From: an uncultured Bacteroidales bacterium
GTDB taxonomy: Bacteria; Bacteroidota; Bacteroidia; Bacteroidales; Muribaculaceae
Length of the DNA stretch: 64,000 nucleotides
Assembly (NCBI GenBank): GCA_958418815.1
Contig: CATZGB010000015.1
Coordinates: forward strand, 113-64,112
Direction of reading: 5' to 3'
A program made the translations under genes and the position numbers. The stretch's first letter is position 1; each line of letters begins with the position of its first letter. Under the pieces are notes generated by a model, which was not told the DNA's origin, searched no databases, and worked only from the letters and a program-made list of their open reading frames with translations. Of the stretch, positions 32,496 through 56,629 are shown piece by piece.

Positions 32496-32577
32496 CCTGA
32501 TTTGCTGACGATTTGCTGACGAGATTCTGACTAATCATTTTTTTGAGATTTTCTTTGGCAGAATGAATGCTGTGTTG

Positions 32578-32585
32578 TAACTTTG
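32578..32585 (+). promoter_or_regulatory. -7 box TAACTTTG, unit 1 of cassette copy 1
   Basis: TAnnTTTG match. The predicted 5' end coincides with the first helix strand at 32590. Confidence 0.55.
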
Positions 32586-32589
32586 CAGT

Positions 32590-32762
32590 GCTACAACCAA
32601 GGTGATTAGTTCACCCCGCACGAGCGCGGTAAATGCTCGACATATTTTGCGGGCTTTTTTTATGCCCGGACATACCAGCCATATGCGGCTGTCACCGATA
32701 TCATTTGACGTGCTCTTAGGAGTGAACGACTTTGGTTGTAGCAACGGTGACAGCCGTTTTTT
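32590..32762 (+). ncRNA. Structured ~173-nt leader/ncRNA, unit 1 (unassigned family)
   Basis: Helix A is 32590-32600 with 32732-42. Helix B is 32686-97 with 32745-56 (12 bp, perfect), followed by T6. A U-loop hairpin lies at 32650-32668. Both helices covary with copy 2. Confidence 0.6.
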
Positions 32763-32786
32763 ATTAATAGCTACAATCAAAGTCGT

Positions 32787-32884
32787 ATGAGAACAACCAA
32801 CACCATCGCCCTGAGCCAGGGCGCGTCGGCCCGCATTCTGCCGGGCGCGGTCTCCACAAAAATCCGCGCAATCGCTTGCGGATT
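32787..32884 (+). other. Truncated duplicate of the first 24 codons of the 2-TM ORF plus hairpin
   Basis: ATG plus [21 protein letters not shown] is identical in sequence to 33127-33198. It then diverges into hairpin aatccgc/gcggatt (32861-32884). Confidence 0.6.
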
Positions 32885-32897
32885 CAAAAAATCTGCT

Positions 32898-32905
32898 TAC
32901 CTTTG
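32898..32905 (+). promoter_or_regulatory. -7 box TACCTTTG, unit 2 of cassette copy 1
   Basis: TAnnTTTG match. The helix strand starts 8 nt downstream. Confidence 0.55.
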
Positions 32906-32910
32906 CAGCG

Positions 32911-33078
32911 TCTTCCATTTGAAACAGGCGACAGCGTCGCCGTCAGCCAGCCAAGCCGTCGGCCTTTTTTGTGGCCGTAGGTCTGTGGCCTACAATATTG
33001 GTTCCGTCCCGTGTGGAGCGTTAATGCGCCCACTGCCTGTTTCAAGGTGGAATGCAACGGGGAGCGGAACCTTTTTTT
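32911..33078 (+). ncRNA. Structured ~168-nt leader/ncRNA, unit 2 (unassigned family)
   Basis: Helix A is 32913-29 with 33035-52. Helix B is 33000-12 with 33057-71, followed by T7. A U-loop hairpin lies at 32960-32977. The architecture matches unit 1. Confidence 0.6.
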
Positions 33079-33126
33079 GTTTCTTCCCTGGGCAAGTTAA
33101 TATAGTTTCATTTAAAGCATTCCGAA

Positions 33127-33384
33127 ATGAAAACAACCAACACCATCGCCCTGAGTCAGGGCGCGCCGGCCCGCATTCTGCCGGGCGCGGTCTCCACAAC
33201 CATCATCCCGGCCCTCCGCGCCATCAGCGTGGCCGCCTCTGTCATCCTCGCGCCGGTGGCCTACCTGCAATGCGCCGCCGGGACTCCGTCGCTGCCCGTG
33301 ATACTGGGCGCGTCGGCCAGCCTGCTGGCGGCGGCATTCCTCCGCCCCTCGTCAACCTCAAGCCGGAAAGGAGGTGACAGATGA
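33127..33384 (+). CDS. Small membrane protein, two predicted TM helices, basic C-terminus (holin-like or type-I-toxin-like features)
   Basis: 85 codons with strong GC3 periodicity. A paralog at 56172-56429 shows 76 of 85 identical residues. An AGGAGG lies near its 3' end, just before the next ATG. Confidence 0.6.
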   Translation: MKTTNTIALSQGAPARILPGAVSTTIIPALRAISVAASVILAPVAYLQCAAGTPSLPVILGASASLLAAAFLRPSSTSSRKGGDR

Positions 33385-33575
33385 GCTTCCGTTTTGAGAA
33401 GAAGGTCGCCATCACCCGGGAGGTGATGGGCGCGCACGTCGTGGAGTTGAAGATTGATGGCTACAGCTCGGGGTTCATCGTCGTGGACGAGCCTCAAGAC
33501 CTGTGTCTGCTCCGTGACAAGCTCGACGAGTACATCAACGAACATGGAATCAAAGAGCCTGAGACCTATGAGTAA
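33381..33575 (+). CDS. Small soluble protein, translationally coupled (ATGA overlap)
   Basis: 64 aa. The paralog at 56426-56629 shares the core GFIVVD.P.DL.LLRD...EYI...GIK. AGGAGGTGA precedes the ATG. Confidence 0.6.
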   Translation: MSFRFEKKVAITREVMGAHVVELKIDGYSSGFIVVDEPQDLCLLRDKLDEYINEHGIKEPETYE

Positions 33576-52334: not shown

Positions 52335-52894
52335 ACGGCATGACGGCGCTGCTGGTCGGGCTGCTGGGCTGCGGCAGCGTCACGGGCATAGTGGCGTATG
52401 TGCTGCACCGGGCCGCCGAGAAGCGTATAAGGATGGCTGAGGCGCGGGTGCGGGAGGCTGAGGCGCGTCTTGCCGAGGCGAATGTGGAGAAGGCGCGCTG
52501 GGAGAGGTATGAACACCAGCTCGACCACGCGGCCAAGACCAATGAGAAGCTGCACAGTATGCTGGAGCGCGACGCGGAGGAGCTGCGTGACAAGACCGAC
52601 CGCATAAGGGAGCTGACCGACAAGATGCTGGTGTCAGAGGGGAAGCTGGATGACGCGAACCTCAGGATTGCCAGGCTCACTGAGCAGCGCGACACGGAGC
52701 GGCTGCTCAAGGAGCGTTACAAGGGGTGGCACTGCCGCTCGTCGGTCTGCCAGGAGGGGAGTCCCGACCCCAAGGGGAGGCGGCCTCCAAATCCTCGCAT
52801 CATCGGCAAGCGGTTCACGCTGCGCGACATCACCGAATCACAATCGAACGAACCGTCATCTGACGAACCATCACAAAACGACACTGACAAATGA
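52322..52894 (+). CDS. N-terminal TM plus coiled-coil protein (holin or i-spanin-like lysis accessory)
   Basis: TM segment ALLVGLLGCGSVTGIVAYVL, then a heptad-rich ~100 aa. It sits immediately upstream of the endolysin with an ATGA overlap. Confidence 0.5.
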   Translation: MELLNGMTALLVGLLGCGSVTGIVAYVLHRAAEKRIRMAEARVREAEARLAEANVEKARWERYEHQLDHAAKTNEKLHSMLERDAEELRDKTDRIRELTDKMLVSEGKLDDANLRIARLTEQRDTERLLKERYKGWHCRSSVCQEGSPDPKGRRPPNPRIIGKRFTLRDITESQSNEPSSDEPSQNDTDK

Positions 52895-53307
52895 GATTTT
52901 TCACAATCGAAGAGTTATGCAAGTCTGACACGGCCGCCCGTCGCGGCATCGACAACACACCCACGCCTGAGGCCGAGGCGAGCCTGCGGGCGCTTGTGGA
53001 AAACATTCTCGACCCGTTGCGCGCCCAGTGGGGCGGCCCGTTGACGGTGACCTCTGGTTACCGCTGCGTGGCCCTGAACAGGGCCGTGGGCGGGGCTGTC
53101 TCCTCCCAGCATATGAGGGGGGAGGCCGCCGACATAACCGCCGGCTCGCGCGAGGCGAACATGCGCCTGTTCAAGTTGATCCAGTCCATGAGGCTCCCCT
53201 TTGACCAGCTCATTTTCGAGAAAGGCAACAGGGCGGTCGGGCCTGACTGGGTGCATGTCTCATTCTGCGCCTCCCGTCGCCGCGGGCAGGTGCTTTACAT
53301 CTCCTGA
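52891..53307 (+). CDS. Endolysin, peptidase M15 (VanY/L-Ala-D-Glu peptidase type)
   Basis: SGYRC..LN, then SQHMRGEAADI (HxxxxxxD), then DWVHVS, the Zn-binding triad pattern. Confidence 0.85.
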   Translation: MRFFTIEELCKSDTAARRGIDNTPTPEAEASLRALVENILDPLRAQWGGPLTVTSGYRCVALNRAVGGAVSSQHMRGEAADITAGSREANMRLFKLIQSMRLPFDQLIFEKGNRAVGPDWVHVSFCASRRRGQVLYIS

Positions 53308-53310
53308 GCC

Positions 53311-53832
53311 ATGCGGGGCGCGCATCCATTGGCGGGGTTCTGGCTGTCGACGGCCCTGTCGTTGTTTGTCATCCTTTCGCTGGCCATGCTGCCCGCGTCG
53401 TGCCGGACTAAGAAGTCTGCCGCGTCGTCGGAGGCCTCCTGGTCTGAGACGCGCGGCTCGGGGGCGGTCACGGTTGTCTCCGGCTCGGTCGACTGGCGGC
53501 GGCTGCTGCTGTCGTGGGTGGCCGACTCCACGACGCTCCGGCTGAGAGCCGACAGCATCGTCACCCCCGGCGGGACGGTCATCCACAACCCCACCATCGA
53601 CACCTCCGCCTCGGGCCCCCGTCTCGACCTCGCGGGGGAGTCGGCCAGCTCAAAGGCCGACTCCATCCACGCCGAGGCCGCGGGCGAGAGCCTGTCATCC
53701 GTTTCTGCCGCCGAGGATTCCGCCACCGACTCCGTCGTTGTGGCCGAGCCTCCCGACTGGCGGATGTGGCTGCCGCTGGCGCTGGTGGTCGGCGCGGGGG
53801 CGGTCGGCATCTGGCTCTCCAGGCGGAAATAA
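53311..53832 (+). CDS. Unimolecular-spanin-like protein (N-terminal lipoprotein signal plus C-terminal TM)
   Basis: LSLAMLPASC is lipobox-like. The C-terminal WLPLALVVGAGAVGIWLSRRK is a TM segment. It lies directly after the endolysin. Confidence 0.55.
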   Translation: MRGAHPLAGFWLSTALSLFVILSLAMLPASCRTKKSAASSEASWSETRGSGAVTVVSGSVDWRRLLLSWVADSTTLRLRADSIVTPGGTVIHNPTIDTSASGPRLDLAGESASSKADSIHAEAAGESLSSVSAAEDSATDSVVVAEPPDWRMWLPLALVVGAGAVGIWLSRRK

Positions 53833-53955: not shown

Positions 53956-54372
53956 TCACACTGTTGCCAGCTCGTTGCCCAACGCGCGTAACGCGTCCTT
54001 GATCTGCGCGACCCGCAAGTCGCTCGGGTTCTTTATGCCGTAGATGTATTTCGACAATAGGCTCTTGTTTATCCCGATGTTACGCGCTATCTCCGACACG
54101 TTTAGTTGTGGGAACCGCTTGAAAATGGCTGCCACCTCGTTTGTCGCGTCTGGCTCTGTTGTATCATAAAAGCTTGAGATGTGGATGTCCTCGTCTATGG
54201 CTTTCCATCTCAATGCCTCCCCTCCCATCTCGATGGTGTACTCCTCGCGTTGCGCGGCCGAGGCCTCTTTCAGTATCGGGAAAGCCTCGAGGGGACGGCT
54301 GTGAATCTCGTCAGCGTCGGTGCGGATGTAAATGCGGTCTGGCGTGAACCATACATTGGCTATTCTTTCCAT
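53956..54372 (-). CDS. DUF2442-like protein with C-terminal HTH (putative antitoxin)
   Basis: WFTPDRIYIRTDADE...GGEALRWKAIDEDIHISSF follows the DUF2442 pattern. The C-terminal NVSEIARNIGINKSLLSKYIYG is an HTH. Confidence 0.65.
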   Translation of the reverse strand: MERIANVWFTPDRIYIRTDADEIHSRPLEAFPILKEASAAQREEYTIEMGGEALRWKAIDEDIHISSFYDTTEPDATNEVAAIFKRFPQLNVSEIARNIGINKSLLSKYIYGIKNPSDLRVAQIKDALRALGNELATV

Positions 54373-54375
54373 AAT

Positions 54376-54609
54376 TCATTTGCAATATTCGTTCCACATT
54401 TCCATTATCTCGTCATGGTATTTTTCCACAAGGTCTAACGCGGTGGAAATCTCTTTAGGCTTCAATCCGGAGTTGGACATCACCTTTATCTCCGGCTCGA
54501 CCTGTATCTTCGCCGACGCGTCGCCTTTTACGACATGTAAATGCACCGGGAGATGGTCGCCGGAAAAGAAGTAGCCGCGAAGTCCTAATATCTCAAATAC
54601 TGTTGGCAT
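54376..54609 (-). CDS. DUF4160-like protein (putative toxin partner)
   Basis: YFFSGDHLPVHLHVVKGDASAKI matches the DUF4160 pattern. It is adjacent to a DUF2442 gene. Confidence 0.65.
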   Translation of the reverse strand: MPTVFEILGLRGYFFSGDHLPVHLHVVKGDASAKIQVEPEIKVMSNSGLKPKEISTALDLVEKYHDEIMEMWNEYCK

Positions 54610-54752: not shown

Positions 54753-54802
54753 TGCCGCGGCTCCGCCGGGACGCTTTTAACAATTATTCTTACCGAAAAT
54801 TT

Positions 54803-54831
54803 TGCTAAATAAAAATTTAGCATTATCTTTG
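54803..54831 (+). promoter_or_regulatory. hicAB promoter: palindromic operator plus -7 box TATCTTTG
   Basis: The palindrome tgctaaat-aaaa-atttagca (54803-54822) abuts TATCTTTG (54824-54831). The ATG is at 54856. Confidence 0.55.
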
Positions 54832-54855
54832 TGGTGTAAATCAAATCAGCGAACA

Positions 54856-55044
54856 ATGAAATACAAAGAACTCCACAAGTTGCTAAGTAAGGCCGGATGT
54901 TACGACACAGGCCGACAACGAAGCGGACATCCTCTGTGGTTCTCACCGATTACCGGCAAATACTTCAGAACAAGTAATCACGGTTCGGAGGAAGTCAAGA
55001 CCGGCACTCTCAAATCAATCCTTCGAGATGCCGGAGTAAAATAA
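54856..55044 (+). CDS. hicA: HicA-family mRNA interferase toxin
   Basis: 62 aa: MKYKELHKLLSKAGC...GHPLWF...HGSEEVKTGTLKSILRDAGV. Confidence 0.85.
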   Translation: MKYKELHKLLSKAGCYDTGRQRSGHPLWFSPITGKYFRTSNHGSEEVKTGTLKSILRDAGVK

Positions 55045-55117
55045 GGGAAGGGGCAAAAGCCCCTCCCTTTACAACCGAATGGGAAGACATTTGTTAAAGA
55101 AATATATAGCATAAAAT

Positions 55118-55525
55118 ATGAGGACAGTACGTGTATTTATTGAACGCGGCAAAGATGGCACTTTCGGCGCCTATATGCCCGATGACAACAATCTCTCTTA
55201 TGGCATTATCGGCGATGGTGCGACTGCCGCTGCTGCCATTGAAGATTTTAAGGCTGAGTATGAAGATATGAAAGCCTTCTTCATGGAGGAAGGAAAGCAT
55301 TTTGAGGAAGTGAATTTTGCGTTCTCGTATGATTTGCCCTCATTCCTCGTCTACTATGCAGACCTTATCTCGTACAAAGGTCTTGCCAAGCTCACAGGCG
55401 TGTCTGCCGCTCAGCTCTCGCAGTATATCTCAGGCTATCGCACTCCGTCGCCCAAAACTACTGAGAAGATTCAGACTGCGCTTCACGCTTTCGGTAAAGA
55501 ATTAAGCCAGTTACAGCTTGTTTGA
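55118..55525 (+). CDS. hicB: HicB-family antitoxin with C-terminal HTH
   Basis: The N-terminus VFIERGKDGTFGAYMPD...GDGATAAAAIEDF is HicB/UPF0150-like. The C-terminal LAKLTGVSAAQLSQYISG is an HTH. Confidence 0.8.
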   Translation: MRTVRVFIERGKDGTFGAYMPDDNNLSYGIIGDGATAAAAIEDFKAEYEDMKAFFMEEGKHFEEVNFAFSYDLPSFLVYYADLISYKGLAKLTGVSAAQLSQYISGYRTPSPKTTEKIQTALHAFGKELSQLQLV

Positions 55526-55586: not shown

Positions 55587-55611
55587 ATTTGCAGAATCCG
55601 TTTTTTGTGCT

Positions 55612-55619
55612 TACCTTTG
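55612..55619 (+). promoter_or_regulatory. -7 box TACCTTTG, unit 1 of cassette copy 2
   Basis: TAnnTTTG match. The helix strand begins at 55624. Confidence 0.55.
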
Positions 55620-55623
55620 CAAT

Positions 55624-55794
55624 GCGAAACTCATAATGGTCGGTCCATTCCGAGGAGCCACGGTTAAAGGCTCGACATTCTATCGGGCATTTTTTATGCC
55701 CTCACATACCAGCTACGGCTGTCATATCCAAATAACTTTTGCTCTTCGGAGCTGACTGTTATGAGTTTCGCGACGGGATATGGCAGCCGTTTTT
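55624..55794 (+). ncRNA. Structured ~171-nt leader/ncRNA, unit 1 of copy 2
   Basis: Helix A is 55624-36 with 55759-71. Helix B is 55716-29 with 55776-89 (one G-U), followed by a T-run. The U-loop hairpin cgggc-auuuuuuau-gccc is conserved. Confidence 0.6.
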
Positions 55795-55820
55795 CTGTCT
55801 AACGCGAAACTCATAACAGT

Positions 55821-55924
55821 ATGGAATCCAAAACAACCAACACCATCGCCCTGAGCCAGGGCGCGCCGGCCCGCATCCTGCCGGGCGCGGTCTCCACAAA
55901 AATCCGCGCAATCGCTTGCGGATT
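55821..55924 (+). other. Truncated duplicate of the 2-TM ORF 5' end plus hairpin (copy 2)
   Basis: Same ~70-nt element and same aatccgc/gcggatt hairpin (55901-55924) as at 32787-32884. Confidence 0.6.
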
Positions 55925-55937
55925 CAAAAAAACTGCT

Positions 55938-55945
55938 TACCTTTG
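55938..55945 (+). promoter_or_regulatory. -7 box TACCTTTG, unit 2 of cassette copy 2
   Basis: TAnnTTTG match. The helix strand begins at 55950. Confidence 0.55.
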
Positions 55946-55949
55946 CAGT

Positions 55950-56115
55950 GTTCACCATTTGATACAGGCGAGTCAATCGCCGAAGCTAATAGCCATCGGC
56001 CTTTTTTATGGCCGTAGGTTTGTCTATAACATTGGTTCCGTCCCGTGTGGAGCGTTAATGCGCCCACAGCCTGTATCAGGTGGTGAACAACGGGGAGCGG
56101 AACCTTTTCTGTTTT
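55950..56115 (+). ncRNA. Structured ~165-nt leader/ncRNA, unit 2 of copy 2
   Basis: Helix A is 55950-69 with 56069-88 (20 bp, two G-U). Helix B is 56034-46 with 56090-104, followed by a T-run. Confidence 0.6.
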
Positions 56116-56171
56116 CGCTCCAGAAGAGTAGTTCAACATCTTTCTTAGGTTTCATTTAATTGTTCACCGAA

Positions 56172-56429
56172 ATGAAAACAACCAACAGCATCGCCCTCCA
56201 ACAGGGCGCGTCAGCCCGCATCCTGCCGGGCGCGGTCTCCACAACCATCATCCCGGCCCTCCGCGTAATCAGCGTGGCCGCCTCTGCCATCCTCGCGCCG
56301 GTGGCCTACCTGCAATGCGTCGCCGGGACTCCGTCGCTGCCCGTGATACTGGGCGCGTCGGCCAGCCTGCTGGCGGCCGCATTCCTCCGCCCCTCGTCAA
56401 CCGTAAGCCGGAAAGGAGGTGAGGTATGA
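56172..56429 (+). CDS. Small two-TM membrane protein, paralog of 33127-33384
   Basis: 85 codons. By my manual alignment, 12 codons differ from copy 1 (3 synonymous, 9 non-synonymous). Confidence 0.6.
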   Translation: MKTTNSIALQQGASARILPGAVSTTIIPALRVISVAASAILAPVAYLQCVAGTPSLPVILGASASLLAAAFLRPSSTVSRKGGEV

Positions 56430-56629
56430 AACGTGACAGCAAGACAAGTATGGAAAAGAGGGTGGTGGTGACCCGTGGCCACAAGGGGGCGCGGGTGGTC
56501 GAATACCAGGTTGGTGAGTTCAGCGGGGGATTCATTGTCGTAGACGCTCCATCAGACCTCTACCTCCTGAGGGATGGAATCGAGGAGTACATCCTCGCCA
56601 ACGGCATCAAGCCCCCATCGGGGAAATGA
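56426..56629 (+). CDS. Small soluble protein, paralog of 33381-33575 (ATGA-coupled)
   Basis: 67 aa. Roughly half of the aligned residues are identical to copy 1. Confidence 0.6.
   Translation: MKRDSKTSMEKRVVVTRGHKGARVVEYQVGEFSGGFIVVDAPSDLYLLRDGIEEYILANGIKPPSGK

Follow-up and report, generated by a model that had tools for sequence, protein, structure and literature searches.

A prophage in the 64-kb stretch of Bacteroidales DNA analysed here (64,000 nt of contig CATZGB010000015.1, from an uncultured member of the Muribaculaceae; hereafter the window) carries two composite leader regions, at 32570-33130 and 55600-56175, whose RNA units each contain one strand that is complementary to two copies of the same short box. 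We labelled the promoter-proximal box A-5', the shared 3' strand A-3' and the copy preceding the ATG A-5''. The last of these, a third complementary segment, had been pointed out in a preliminary description made from the window alone, and it is confirmed here: both pairings covary across dozens of independent variants. The accompanying interpretation, that A-3' switches between the 5' end of the transcript and the translation-initiation region, is partly supported.

The two leader copies share 85% identity. Each begins with a Bacteroidota-type -7 box, followed by a type-1 RNA unit with its U-run and a box adjoining an ATG; then come the 24 starting codons of an open reading frame (ORF), a second -7 box, a type-2 RNA unit with its U-run, and a box adjoining the ATG of a complete 85-aa ORF (ORF1), which overlaps an ORF2 of 64-67 aa. 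The type-1 units lie at 32586-32786 and 55620-55820 and the type-2 units at 32906-33126 and 55946-56171, and all elements given below for the units are on the plus strand.

One strand and two partners in the window

In unit 1 of copy 1, ctttggttgtagc (32730-42) is complementary to gctacaatcaaag (32770-82), upstream of the ATG at 32787, and in unit 1 of copy 2 the same relation holds between ctgttatgagtttcgc (55756-71) and gcgaaactcataacag (55804-19), upstream of the ATG at 55821. In the type-2 units, ggaatgc (33049-55, full coordinates 33049-33055) perfectly matches gcattcc (33117-23; ATG at 33127), and ggtgaac (56082-88) matches gttcacc (56162-68; ATG at 56172-56174). These coordinates and sequences had all been given correctly, although the type-1 helices proved longer than described: A-3' forms an ungapped helix of 17 bp in copy 1 (32727-32743 with 32770-32786) and of 18 bp in copy 2 (55755-55772 with 55803-55820), and both A-5'' strands end at position -1 of the ATG.

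The upstream partner of copy 1 unit 1, gctacaaccaagg (32590-32602), presumably comprises the 5' bases of the transcript; it pairs with 32730-42 with one G.U and covaries among homologues. The complete A-3' strand forms a 14-bp helix with the 5' end in copy 1 and an 18-bp, G.U-containing helix in copy 2, where A-5' is gcgaaactcataatgg (55624-39). In the type-2 units, A-5' reads gttcacc (55950-56) in copy 2 and gtcttcc (32910-16) in copy 1, the latter matching ggaatgc at 6 of 7 positions when wobble is counted. Thus, of the two partners claimed for A-3' in every unit, the downstream one was always found, whereas the upstream one is imperfect in copy 1 unit 2. This unit is probably a recombinant, because its 5' part resembles that of L003 and its A-3' and A-5'' boxes are those of L017 (L-numbers denote relative loci).

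Within the window, each 13-nt box occurs only as its three copies, with 0.06-0.18 matches expected. A near-match, GCGAAGCTCATAA (32451-63), lies in the 3' end of the gene before copy 1 and agrees with the type-1 box of copy 2 at 12 of 13 positions. Its mismatch would make a G.U pair with A-3', and the equivalent site in L012 does not match its partner unit; the near-match is probably due to chance.

Both pairings covary in two leader families

IMG/VR was searched with one conserved core pattern per leader type, and both types recurred, in at least 120 phage stretches each. The family counts rest on the stretches listed, which provided ~90 distinct type-2 units and ~33 clean type-1 units after filters. 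A protein-based search with ORF1 gave 19 loci, the DNA core patterns being far more productive.

The third segment, which the preliminary description expected homologues to share, was carried by nearly all type-2 units: A-3' and A-5'' matched at 7 of 7 positions in 86 of 90 distinct units, whereas random reassignment of the A-5'' boxes gave 9.0 such units on average and never more than 19 in 2000 shuffles. The upstream pairing, A-5':A-3', was complete (7/7) in 80 of 85 units. Twenty address classes were distinguished, and five inner positions alone vary (0.8-1.8 bits), whereas the flanks of A-3', AGGT before and AACGGG after, both outside the search pattern, are invariant. An eighth pair was found with the downstream partner only (A-U in 66/82, G-C in 4/4), the base before A-5' being unconstrained. 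Because this pair is unique to the downstream partner, A-5'' is selected for pairing with A-3' itself and not as a mere copy of A-5'. The probable recombinants (L011 and copy 1 unit 2 of the window) retain the A-3':A-5'' match while A-5' drifts. The closing helix, consisting of helix A and an adjacent 10-bp helix, was recovered by RNAalifold with many double changes.

The type-2 box is separated from the ATG by 3-4 nt, and in most type-2 units A-5'' sits in the loop of a weak, conserved start-codon hairpin (UUUCAUUUU/AAAAUGAAA; -3 to -6 kcal/mol). In copy 1 unit 2 of the window, this hairpin (33105-33135) is formed by tttcattt and aaatgaaa, with gcattcc in the loop. Pyrimidines prevail in type-2 A-5' boxes, and purines prevail in A-3' and its invariant AGGU flank (AGGUGGAGAUC, AGGUGGAAGAC). 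Pairing of a conserved GTTTCATTT element with helix A2 was also considered and was rejected, as the element did not covary with A2 variants.

Each of the ~33 type-1 units has its own box of 12-23 nt. The A-3':A-5'' duplex energy was -26.1 kcal/mol for a unit's own boxes and -9.3 kcal/mol for non-own boxes, and the corresponding values for A-5':A-3' were -27.6 and -11.9 kcal/mol. Of the 33 units, 25 had a downstream helix longer than the upstream one; pairs in the downstream helix are mostly Watson-Crick, whereas the upstream helix is G.U-rich; the downstream helix ended between -4 and +6 relative to the ATG, with a mode of 0. The upstream helix was lengthened by G.U pairs in 28 of 33 units and by A.C pairs in 4 of 33. 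A.C is the mismatch that a minus-strand RNA or a DNA repeat would tolerate, and its rarity relative to G.U shows that selection acts on the plus-strand RNA.

A probable long-range terminator helix and its mirrored second partner

A second long-range helix, T, crosses helix A. In type 2 it is formed by GGTTCCG..CCCG with CGGG..CGGAACC, the latter followed by the U-run; its strands lie ~45-60 nt apart, and in 35 sequences it was 100% paired with four covarying pairs. In the window, T-5' of copy 1 unit 1 (32685-32698, core ggctgtcaccg) is the complement of T-3' at 32745-56, which runs into the U-run at 32757-62 (T-3' and U-run together 32745-32762). This helix covaries when compared with copy 2 (ggctgtcatatcc/ggatatggcagcc), L012 and L016, and a simple local terminator scan at the same place returned a weak 6-bp stem only. 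In copy 2 unit 1, T-5' acggctgtcatatcc (55715-55729) is the complement of 55775-89 with one G.U, and the U-run follows at 55790-94. In copy 1 unit 2, T-5' ggttccgtcccg (33000-33011) pairs with T-3' at 33058-71, before the U-run at 33072-78 (33058-33078 in all), and in copy 2 unit 2 T-3' (56091-104, the A-3'/T-3' strand spanning 56082-56104) precedes a U-rich run at 56105-15. The terminator would therefore be a long-range helix that crosses helix A, not a local hairpin.

T-3', like A-3', has a second partner. This segment, T-5'', lies directly after the U-run and is seen in the type-2 units of the window (33058-71 with 33079-90; 56091-104 with 56111-21) as well as in L022 and L026, while L025 gives the example ACGGGGAGCGGAAC-U7-GUUCCCUUCCCGU. 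In copy 1 unit 2, T-5'' is gtttcttccctg (33079-33090), with a duplex energy of -12.0 kcal/mol, and in copy 2 unit 2 it is gttttcgctcc (with the U-rich run, 56105-56121). Over the family, T-3':T-5'' averaged -16.5 kcal/mol, compared with -8.8 kcal/mol for shuffled spacers, and units with a deviant T-3', such as L033, have matching T-5' and T-5''. Type 1 has a short T-5'' (ctgtc at 55795-99 in copy 2 unit 1, where T-3', U-run and T-5'' occupy 55775-55799), which also covaries: GGCAG/CUGCC in the window, GGUAG/CUACC in L012 and GGCAA/UUGCC in L016. The downstream copies stand in mirrored order, T-5'' and then A-5''. Because of this mirroring, the alternative fold would be a single extended, nested hairpin, in which the U-run lies in the loop and the start codon at the base. 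Mutual exclusion of helices A and T was set aside as a separate proposal; it had been argued from geometry alone, and a compact pseudoknot might accommodate both.

The same features bear on an origin of the boxes at the DNA level, that is, as the inverted repeats of an invertible segment, as a target-site duplication or by chance. A-5' and A-5'' are indeed direct repeats with A-3' inverted, invertible promoters are common in Bacteroides, and these loci often show tandem duplications or recombinants. However, the wobble asymmetry is strand-specific (G.U in 28/33 against A.C in 4/33), and the mirrored T-5''/A-5'' order fits a nested hairpin and not a tandem duplication; on these two grounds, an invertible segment and a target-site duplication were both rejected. 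In addition, recombinase sites would be expected to be conserved, whereas the boxes are hypervariable, and a scan of neighbouring ORFs found no recombinase encoded adjacent to the units. Chance is excluded by the shuffles and box counts. A DNA-level explanation as a whole is therefore highly improbable.

Folding predictions and the proposed switch

Minimum free energy folds were compared for terminated and read-through type-1 RNAs (33 each): A-3' paired with A-5' in 27 of the former and with A-5'' in 24 of the latter. Of the two type-1 units in the window, that of copy 1 switches partner on read-through and that of copy 2 does not. For terminated type-2 RNAs, nested models, which cannot score a pseudoknot, favoured the closing helix by ~10 kcal/mol over the T-based fold.

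We propose that the units are complete, independent leaders of operons in temperate Bacteroidales phages and that in each of them the A-3'/T-3' strand toggles between a small-RNA/terminator fold and a start-occluded fold, and we give this reading about an even chance of being right. Transcription from a consensus Bacteroidota promoter would begin at the first G of the A box. A-3', emerging ~155-175 nt later, would pair back with these first bases and close a structured domain, while the long-range T-5':T-3' helix and the U-run would act as an intrinsic terminator. Transcripts that end at the U-run would be stable small RNAs whose 5' end is buried. On read-through, T-5'' would emerge, followed by A-5'' 0-4 nt before the AUG, and the same 3' strand could be captured in a local hairpin that covers the translation-initiation region of ORF1 and, through coupling, affects the next gene. 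Such a start-site lock would be a second barrier behind the terminator, comparable to fold-back in hok or to a switching strand in translational riboswitches. Candidates for its release are a factor that holds the upstream fold, cleavage of the duplex by an RNase, and mass action.

Several points weigh against this switch. In read-through type-2 RNAs, the A-5':A-3' pairing persisted in 46 of 46 predictions and the A-3':A-5'' fold was ~10 kcal/mol worse; in the latter fold, the AUG itself was less paired. Moreover, if the pseudoknotted T helix were added to the upstream fold, that fold may win in type 1 too. The change of partner that the preliminary description assigned to A-3' is thus predicted by folding for type 1, whereas the nested model keeps the upstream pairing throughout type 2. 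By prediction, the switch is well supported in type 1 and weakly in type 2, in which a simple thermodynamic switch is doubtful. In L022, A-5' equals A-5'' and A-3' matches both at 5 of 7 positions only. A lock in cis also leaves open how ORF1 gets translated, and the promoter and terminator are motif-level calls. Finally, a cis-only lock is unable to explain the boxes, because they outpace their surroundings.

A fast-changing address

The boxes change ~10-40 times faster than the surrounding sequence, at the same positions across all three copies. Between L024 and L060, 6 of 21 box positions differ, compared with 9 of 986 others (Fisher 1.7e-7), and between L025 and L124 the values are 6 of 21 and 23 of 754 (6e-5). 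One and the same address can recur in widely dissimilar sequences; GCATTCC, for example, is found in the window, L017, L021 and L033. The units of one locus have differing addresses (L008, L052, L078 and the window), with the exception of L022, a recent duplication. Judged from these sequence comparisons, the boxes have the pattern of specificity determinants in RNA-RNA recognition.

This pattern raises the possibility that the terminated small RNA is made constitutively and pairs in trans, through A-3', with the cognate A-5'' (and perhaps with nascent A-5') of the same or a related phage. Such pairing would block ORF1 translation or favour termination, and the box would set an immunity-like specificity and keep units orthogonal; the cis switch can coexist with it. 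The change of the boxes, far faster than that of the flanks and simultaneous in all three copies, speaks for action in trans, as do the restriction of variation to five inner bases between invariant flanks, the 20 recurring classes, and the differing addresses within a locus. Moreover, the type-2 target is displayed in a hairpin loop, a common presentation of antisense targets, and the type-1 target helix exceeds the self-helix in length, so strand displacement is possible; precedents for this logic are P4 CI RNA with seqA/seqC, P1/P7 C4 with its flanking targets, and the short and long forms of IsrK (PMC4825925; PMC8198154). However, the small RNA is predicted to have the whole of A-3' engaged with its own 5' end, and a free seed would need processing or another fold. 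Except for the non-covarying near-match, the window contains no further targets of the 13-nt boxes, and within-genome pairs are too few to judge orthogonality. Fast concerted change could also be obtained by template switching between repeat arms. On balance, we regard action in trans as possible rather than probable.

In a related and equally tentative proposal, the box, with 5-7 nt in type 2 and 12-23 nt in type 1, would act as a programmable address and A-3' as the guide to matching boxes on other RNAs, and the pseudoknotted, conserved core would be a scaffold for a protein of phage or host origin or for catalysis by the RNA itself. If this were true, the leaders would provide RNA-based, rapidly diversifying heteroimmunity, self/non-self control of late genes, or guide-directed processing; we know of no address-guided system of this kind described in Bacteroidota. 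A small RNA acting in trans would likewise imply RNA-based immunity or cross-talk among co-resident gut phages. The matched, fast-changing addresses are natural orthogonal RNA-RNA pairs and might be reused as regulators in Bacteroides.

The geometry of the downstream duplex suggests a further use, as a cleavage site for RNase III or RNase P, or within a ribozyme leader with A-3' as its internal guide. A cut would yield an mRNA with a very short leader, so that translation would be turned on, not off. The downstream type-1 helix, with 17-23 bp that are nearly all Watson-Crick, ends at the ATG, and the type-2 7-bp helix starts at the terminal G beside a coaxial helix, a geometry that resembles RNase P substrates and the guide helices of some ribozymes. 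The highly conserved, pseudoknotted core would also suit such a function. On the other hand, no Rfam match to a ribozyme, an RNase P substrate family or a C4/IsrK model was obtained, the type-2 duplex has just 8-9 bp, and a promoter lies exactly 4 nt before the box in every unit, which makes a cut unnecessary for generating the 5' end. We therefore consider processing at this duplex unlikely. An HDV-like ribozyme (hepatitis delta virus; a 7-bp 5' helix crossed by another) was considered as a specific candidate and set aside: no model matched, and the extra A2 helix and the absent P4/J4-2 do not fit.

Promoters, ORF1 and probably coupled genes

The start of transcription assumed in the cis switch agrees with the spacing of the promoter motif. 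In 89 of 94 type-2 units, the box lies 4 nt after TAnnTTTG, and its initial base, which is always G, is what we take, by known Bacteroides promoters, to be the likeliest transcription start. In the window, the -7 box of copy 1 unit 1, TAACTTTG (32578-32585), fits the TAnnTTTG pattern and is followed by A-5' at the same distance of 4 nt. The other -7 boxes are TACCTTTG at 32898-905 in copy 1 unit 2 (32898-32916 with A-5'), 55612-19 in copy 2 unit 1 (55612-55639 with A-5') and 55938-45 in copy 2 unit 2 (55938-55956 with A-5'). Many promoters of relatives (L002, L003, L004, L008, L011, L013, L014 and L016) contain a conserved element, TTTGyCGGTTCCGGAAtt, that lies between the -7 box and the -33 TTTG and includes the palindrome TTCCGGAA; the four promoters of the window are without it. 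This element could be an operator.

The ORFs behind the units are diverse (57-97 aa), and units occur without the 85-aa ORF as well. Many ORF1 products have 80-95 aa and hydrophobic C-terminal halves, and others are soluble (65 aa). Pfam and PHROGs scans of ORF1 and ORF2 identified no family. The ORF1 of copy 1 (33127-33384) encodes a hydrophobic 85-aa protein with the C-terminus RKGGDR. Its terminal codons contain ggaaaggagg, and ORF2 (33381-33575) starts with an ATG that overlaps the ORF1 stop; in copy 2, ORF1 lies at 56172-56429 and ORF2 at 56426-56629. Every ORF1 ends in (K/E)GGxx, which spells a Shine-Dalgarno-like AAGGAGG sequence (33366-33384 and 56411-56429 in the window; L021-L128), and its stop, a few bases further on, overlaps the next ATG. 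Bacteroidota mostly do without Shine-Dalgarno-like sequences, so such ORF1 ends were unexpected. Because the AAGGAGG-like end overlaps the next start, ORF1 translation probably drives the following genes.

The first ~70 nt of ORF1 contain G+C-rich hairpins, for example, cgccctg-agc-cagggcg (32799-32856, 33139-33196 and equivalents), and an xGCCTG...CAGGCx hairpin occupies the same position in ORF1 families that are apparently unrelated (L027, L034 and L041). The recurrent hairpin may belong to the regulatory RNA rather than to a protein motif. The sequence GGGCGCGTCGGCC is found near both the N- and the C-terminus of ORF1 (32817-32829 and 33307-33319), and a fusion ORF in L017 (997-1488) looks like the product of recombination between two GGGCGCGTCGGCC sites of ORF1.

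Distribution and arrangement of the units

Most of the 19 loci from the ORF1 search have a single unit of either type before the ORF, each with its own matched triple, and the tandem arrangement of the window is therefore best seen as a composite. Tandem arrays of two or three units were also found in L036 (4660-5800), L022, L052, L078, L137 and L034/L082, and the number of units per genome is two to four. Tandem units in the window and its relatives are separated by shortened N-terminal pieces of ORF1; in the window, these lie at 32787-32858 (the 24 starting codons, identified by alignment with the other copy and the full ORF) and 55821-55898. In some arrays, the shortened ORF remains open across the entire following unit; in others it ends within the conserved TTTCATTTTAA element or is joined in frame to the ORF1 that follows.

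At most IMG/VR loci, conserved genes follow on the same strand, including those for a 346-aa and a 454-aa protein, which we take from their position to be probably structural. Two hairpins are common to types 1 and 2, one looping out UUUUUUAU (CGGsC-UUUUUUAU-GsCCG) and one whose loop reads GUUAA(A/U)G, but their order differs. Given these common hairpins and the overall topology, the two types may be distant relatives.

Neither type belongs to a catalogued RNA family. Rfam 15 gave no family match in cmscan runs of 32500-33200 (E<=5) and of L025, L142 and L022 (E<=1), and a scan of the whole window at gathering thresholds returned tRNA only. The permissive matches to SNORD15, CRISPR-DR34 and Pedo-repair were at chance level and were discarded. 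In the annotated phage collection, one record, MT835542.1, which is unannotated, was found, and literature searches for Bacteroides phage leader RNAs retrieved no description of these leaders.

Comparison with known systems

The logic of the units is that of known systems. PMC4825925 and PMC8198154 describe CI of phage P4, with seqA and seqC, and C4 of P1 and P7, upstream of icd-ant, as small RNAs complementary to flanking direct repeats, of which the downstream one governs a small first ORF and thereby the genes after it. The leaders resemble these in that a promoter-proximal small-RNA segment is complementary to an upstream and a downstream direct repeat, the latter at the start of a small ORF. 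The mature RNA in P1 and P4 is made by RNase P and acts in trans, and specificity differs between the related phages P1 and P7. In contrast, no processing would be needed here, because the upstream repeat already forms the start of the primary transcript. Furthermore, there is no sequence or structure similarity (no Rfam match), a long-range terminator of its own would end the RNA, the host belongs to the Bacteroidota, and the operon consists of structural genes instead of anti-repressor or replication genes.

In IsrK of Gifsy-1, transcripts from a single promoter either terminate as a small RNA or read through as an mRNA, and pairing of the small-RNA part with the region of a small ORF, itself translationally coupled to the next gene, keeps that mRNA translationally inactive (PMC4825925). 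There, the short form activates the long one in trans, whereas here the long form already holds the competitor A-5'. The leaders share with hok a transcript 5' end that can enter long-range pairings which exclude each other and would govern a small hydrophobic ORF, a weaker early helix being replaced later. The partner of the 5' end in hok is the 3' end of the mRNA, and 3' trimming activates the message; here, the shared strand, A-3', is internal, ~130-150 nt downstream of the 5' end and upstream of the ORF, and a terminator stands between the partners. No antisense gene was seen on the opposite strand at the leaders, though no search was aimed at minus-strand Bacteroidota promoters.

According to PMC7547250, StxS of an Stx phage is a short RNA produced by a promoter and a terminator before the late genes. 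The arrangement here likewise recalls lambda PR'-tR' (6S RNA), with a promoter and then a terminator within ~150-200 nt upstream of structural genes, and this likeness, drawn in the preliminary description, holds at the level of motifs. Unlike in lambda, the terminated RNA has a highly conserved, pseudoknotted fold and the units occur in tandem, two to four per genome. The Q family was absent from Pfam scans of the ORFs at 26-32.5 kb, which would miss a non-homologous factor; these scans found a LuxR-type helix-turn-helix, a primase and a DnaA_C-like helix-turn-helix. In the add adenine riboswitch, the 3' strand of P1 is the switching strand and alternatively pairs with the initiation region, which therefore resembles the 5' strand of P1. 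Similarly, the 3' strand of the closing helix can pair at the start codon here, but no known aptamer model matched and each unit has its own promoter exactly at P1.

New, compared with these systems, are the upstream partner formed by the first bases, the crossing long-range terminator, the mirrored downstream partners and the short hypervariable address that is matched three times. Temperate Bacteroidales phages make up a dominant share of the gut virome in humans and mice, and to our knowledge the timing of their structural genes is almost wholly obscure. The leaders precede structural genes in hundreds of phage contigs and would fit a promoter, a start-site lock and a terminator with a pseudoknot into ~230 nt.

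Prophage context of the leaders

The window consists of ~24.8 kb of host chromosome followed by the prophage, with the boundary near 25 kb (~24.9-25.5 kb), after lgt. The host part opens with a tRNA gene on the minus strand (67-139) and includes dnaN, mutS2, coaBC, recN, pta-ackA and lgt; the prophage encodes a primase, a head protease, a terminase, a portal protein, an M15 lysin and a tape measure protein. The head protease, terminase and portal genes lie 3' of leader copy 1, and the tape measure gene lies 3' of copy 2. ORF1 homologues were assigned to Muribaculaceae by their source records.

Upstream of copy 2, a HicA-like ORF and its likely HicB neighbour were assigned by eye (54802-55525), preceded by a pair of small ORFs on the minus strand (53956-54609). 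Relatives of the ORF at 55118-55525 are also found upstream of units in L002, L005 and L019. A candidate lysis cassette just before these ORFs comprises an M15 peptidase (52891-53307, by eye) and a lipoprotein (53311-53832). In L017 and L019, the ORF1-ORF2 cassette adjoins a convergent integrase gene at the opposite end of the prophage.

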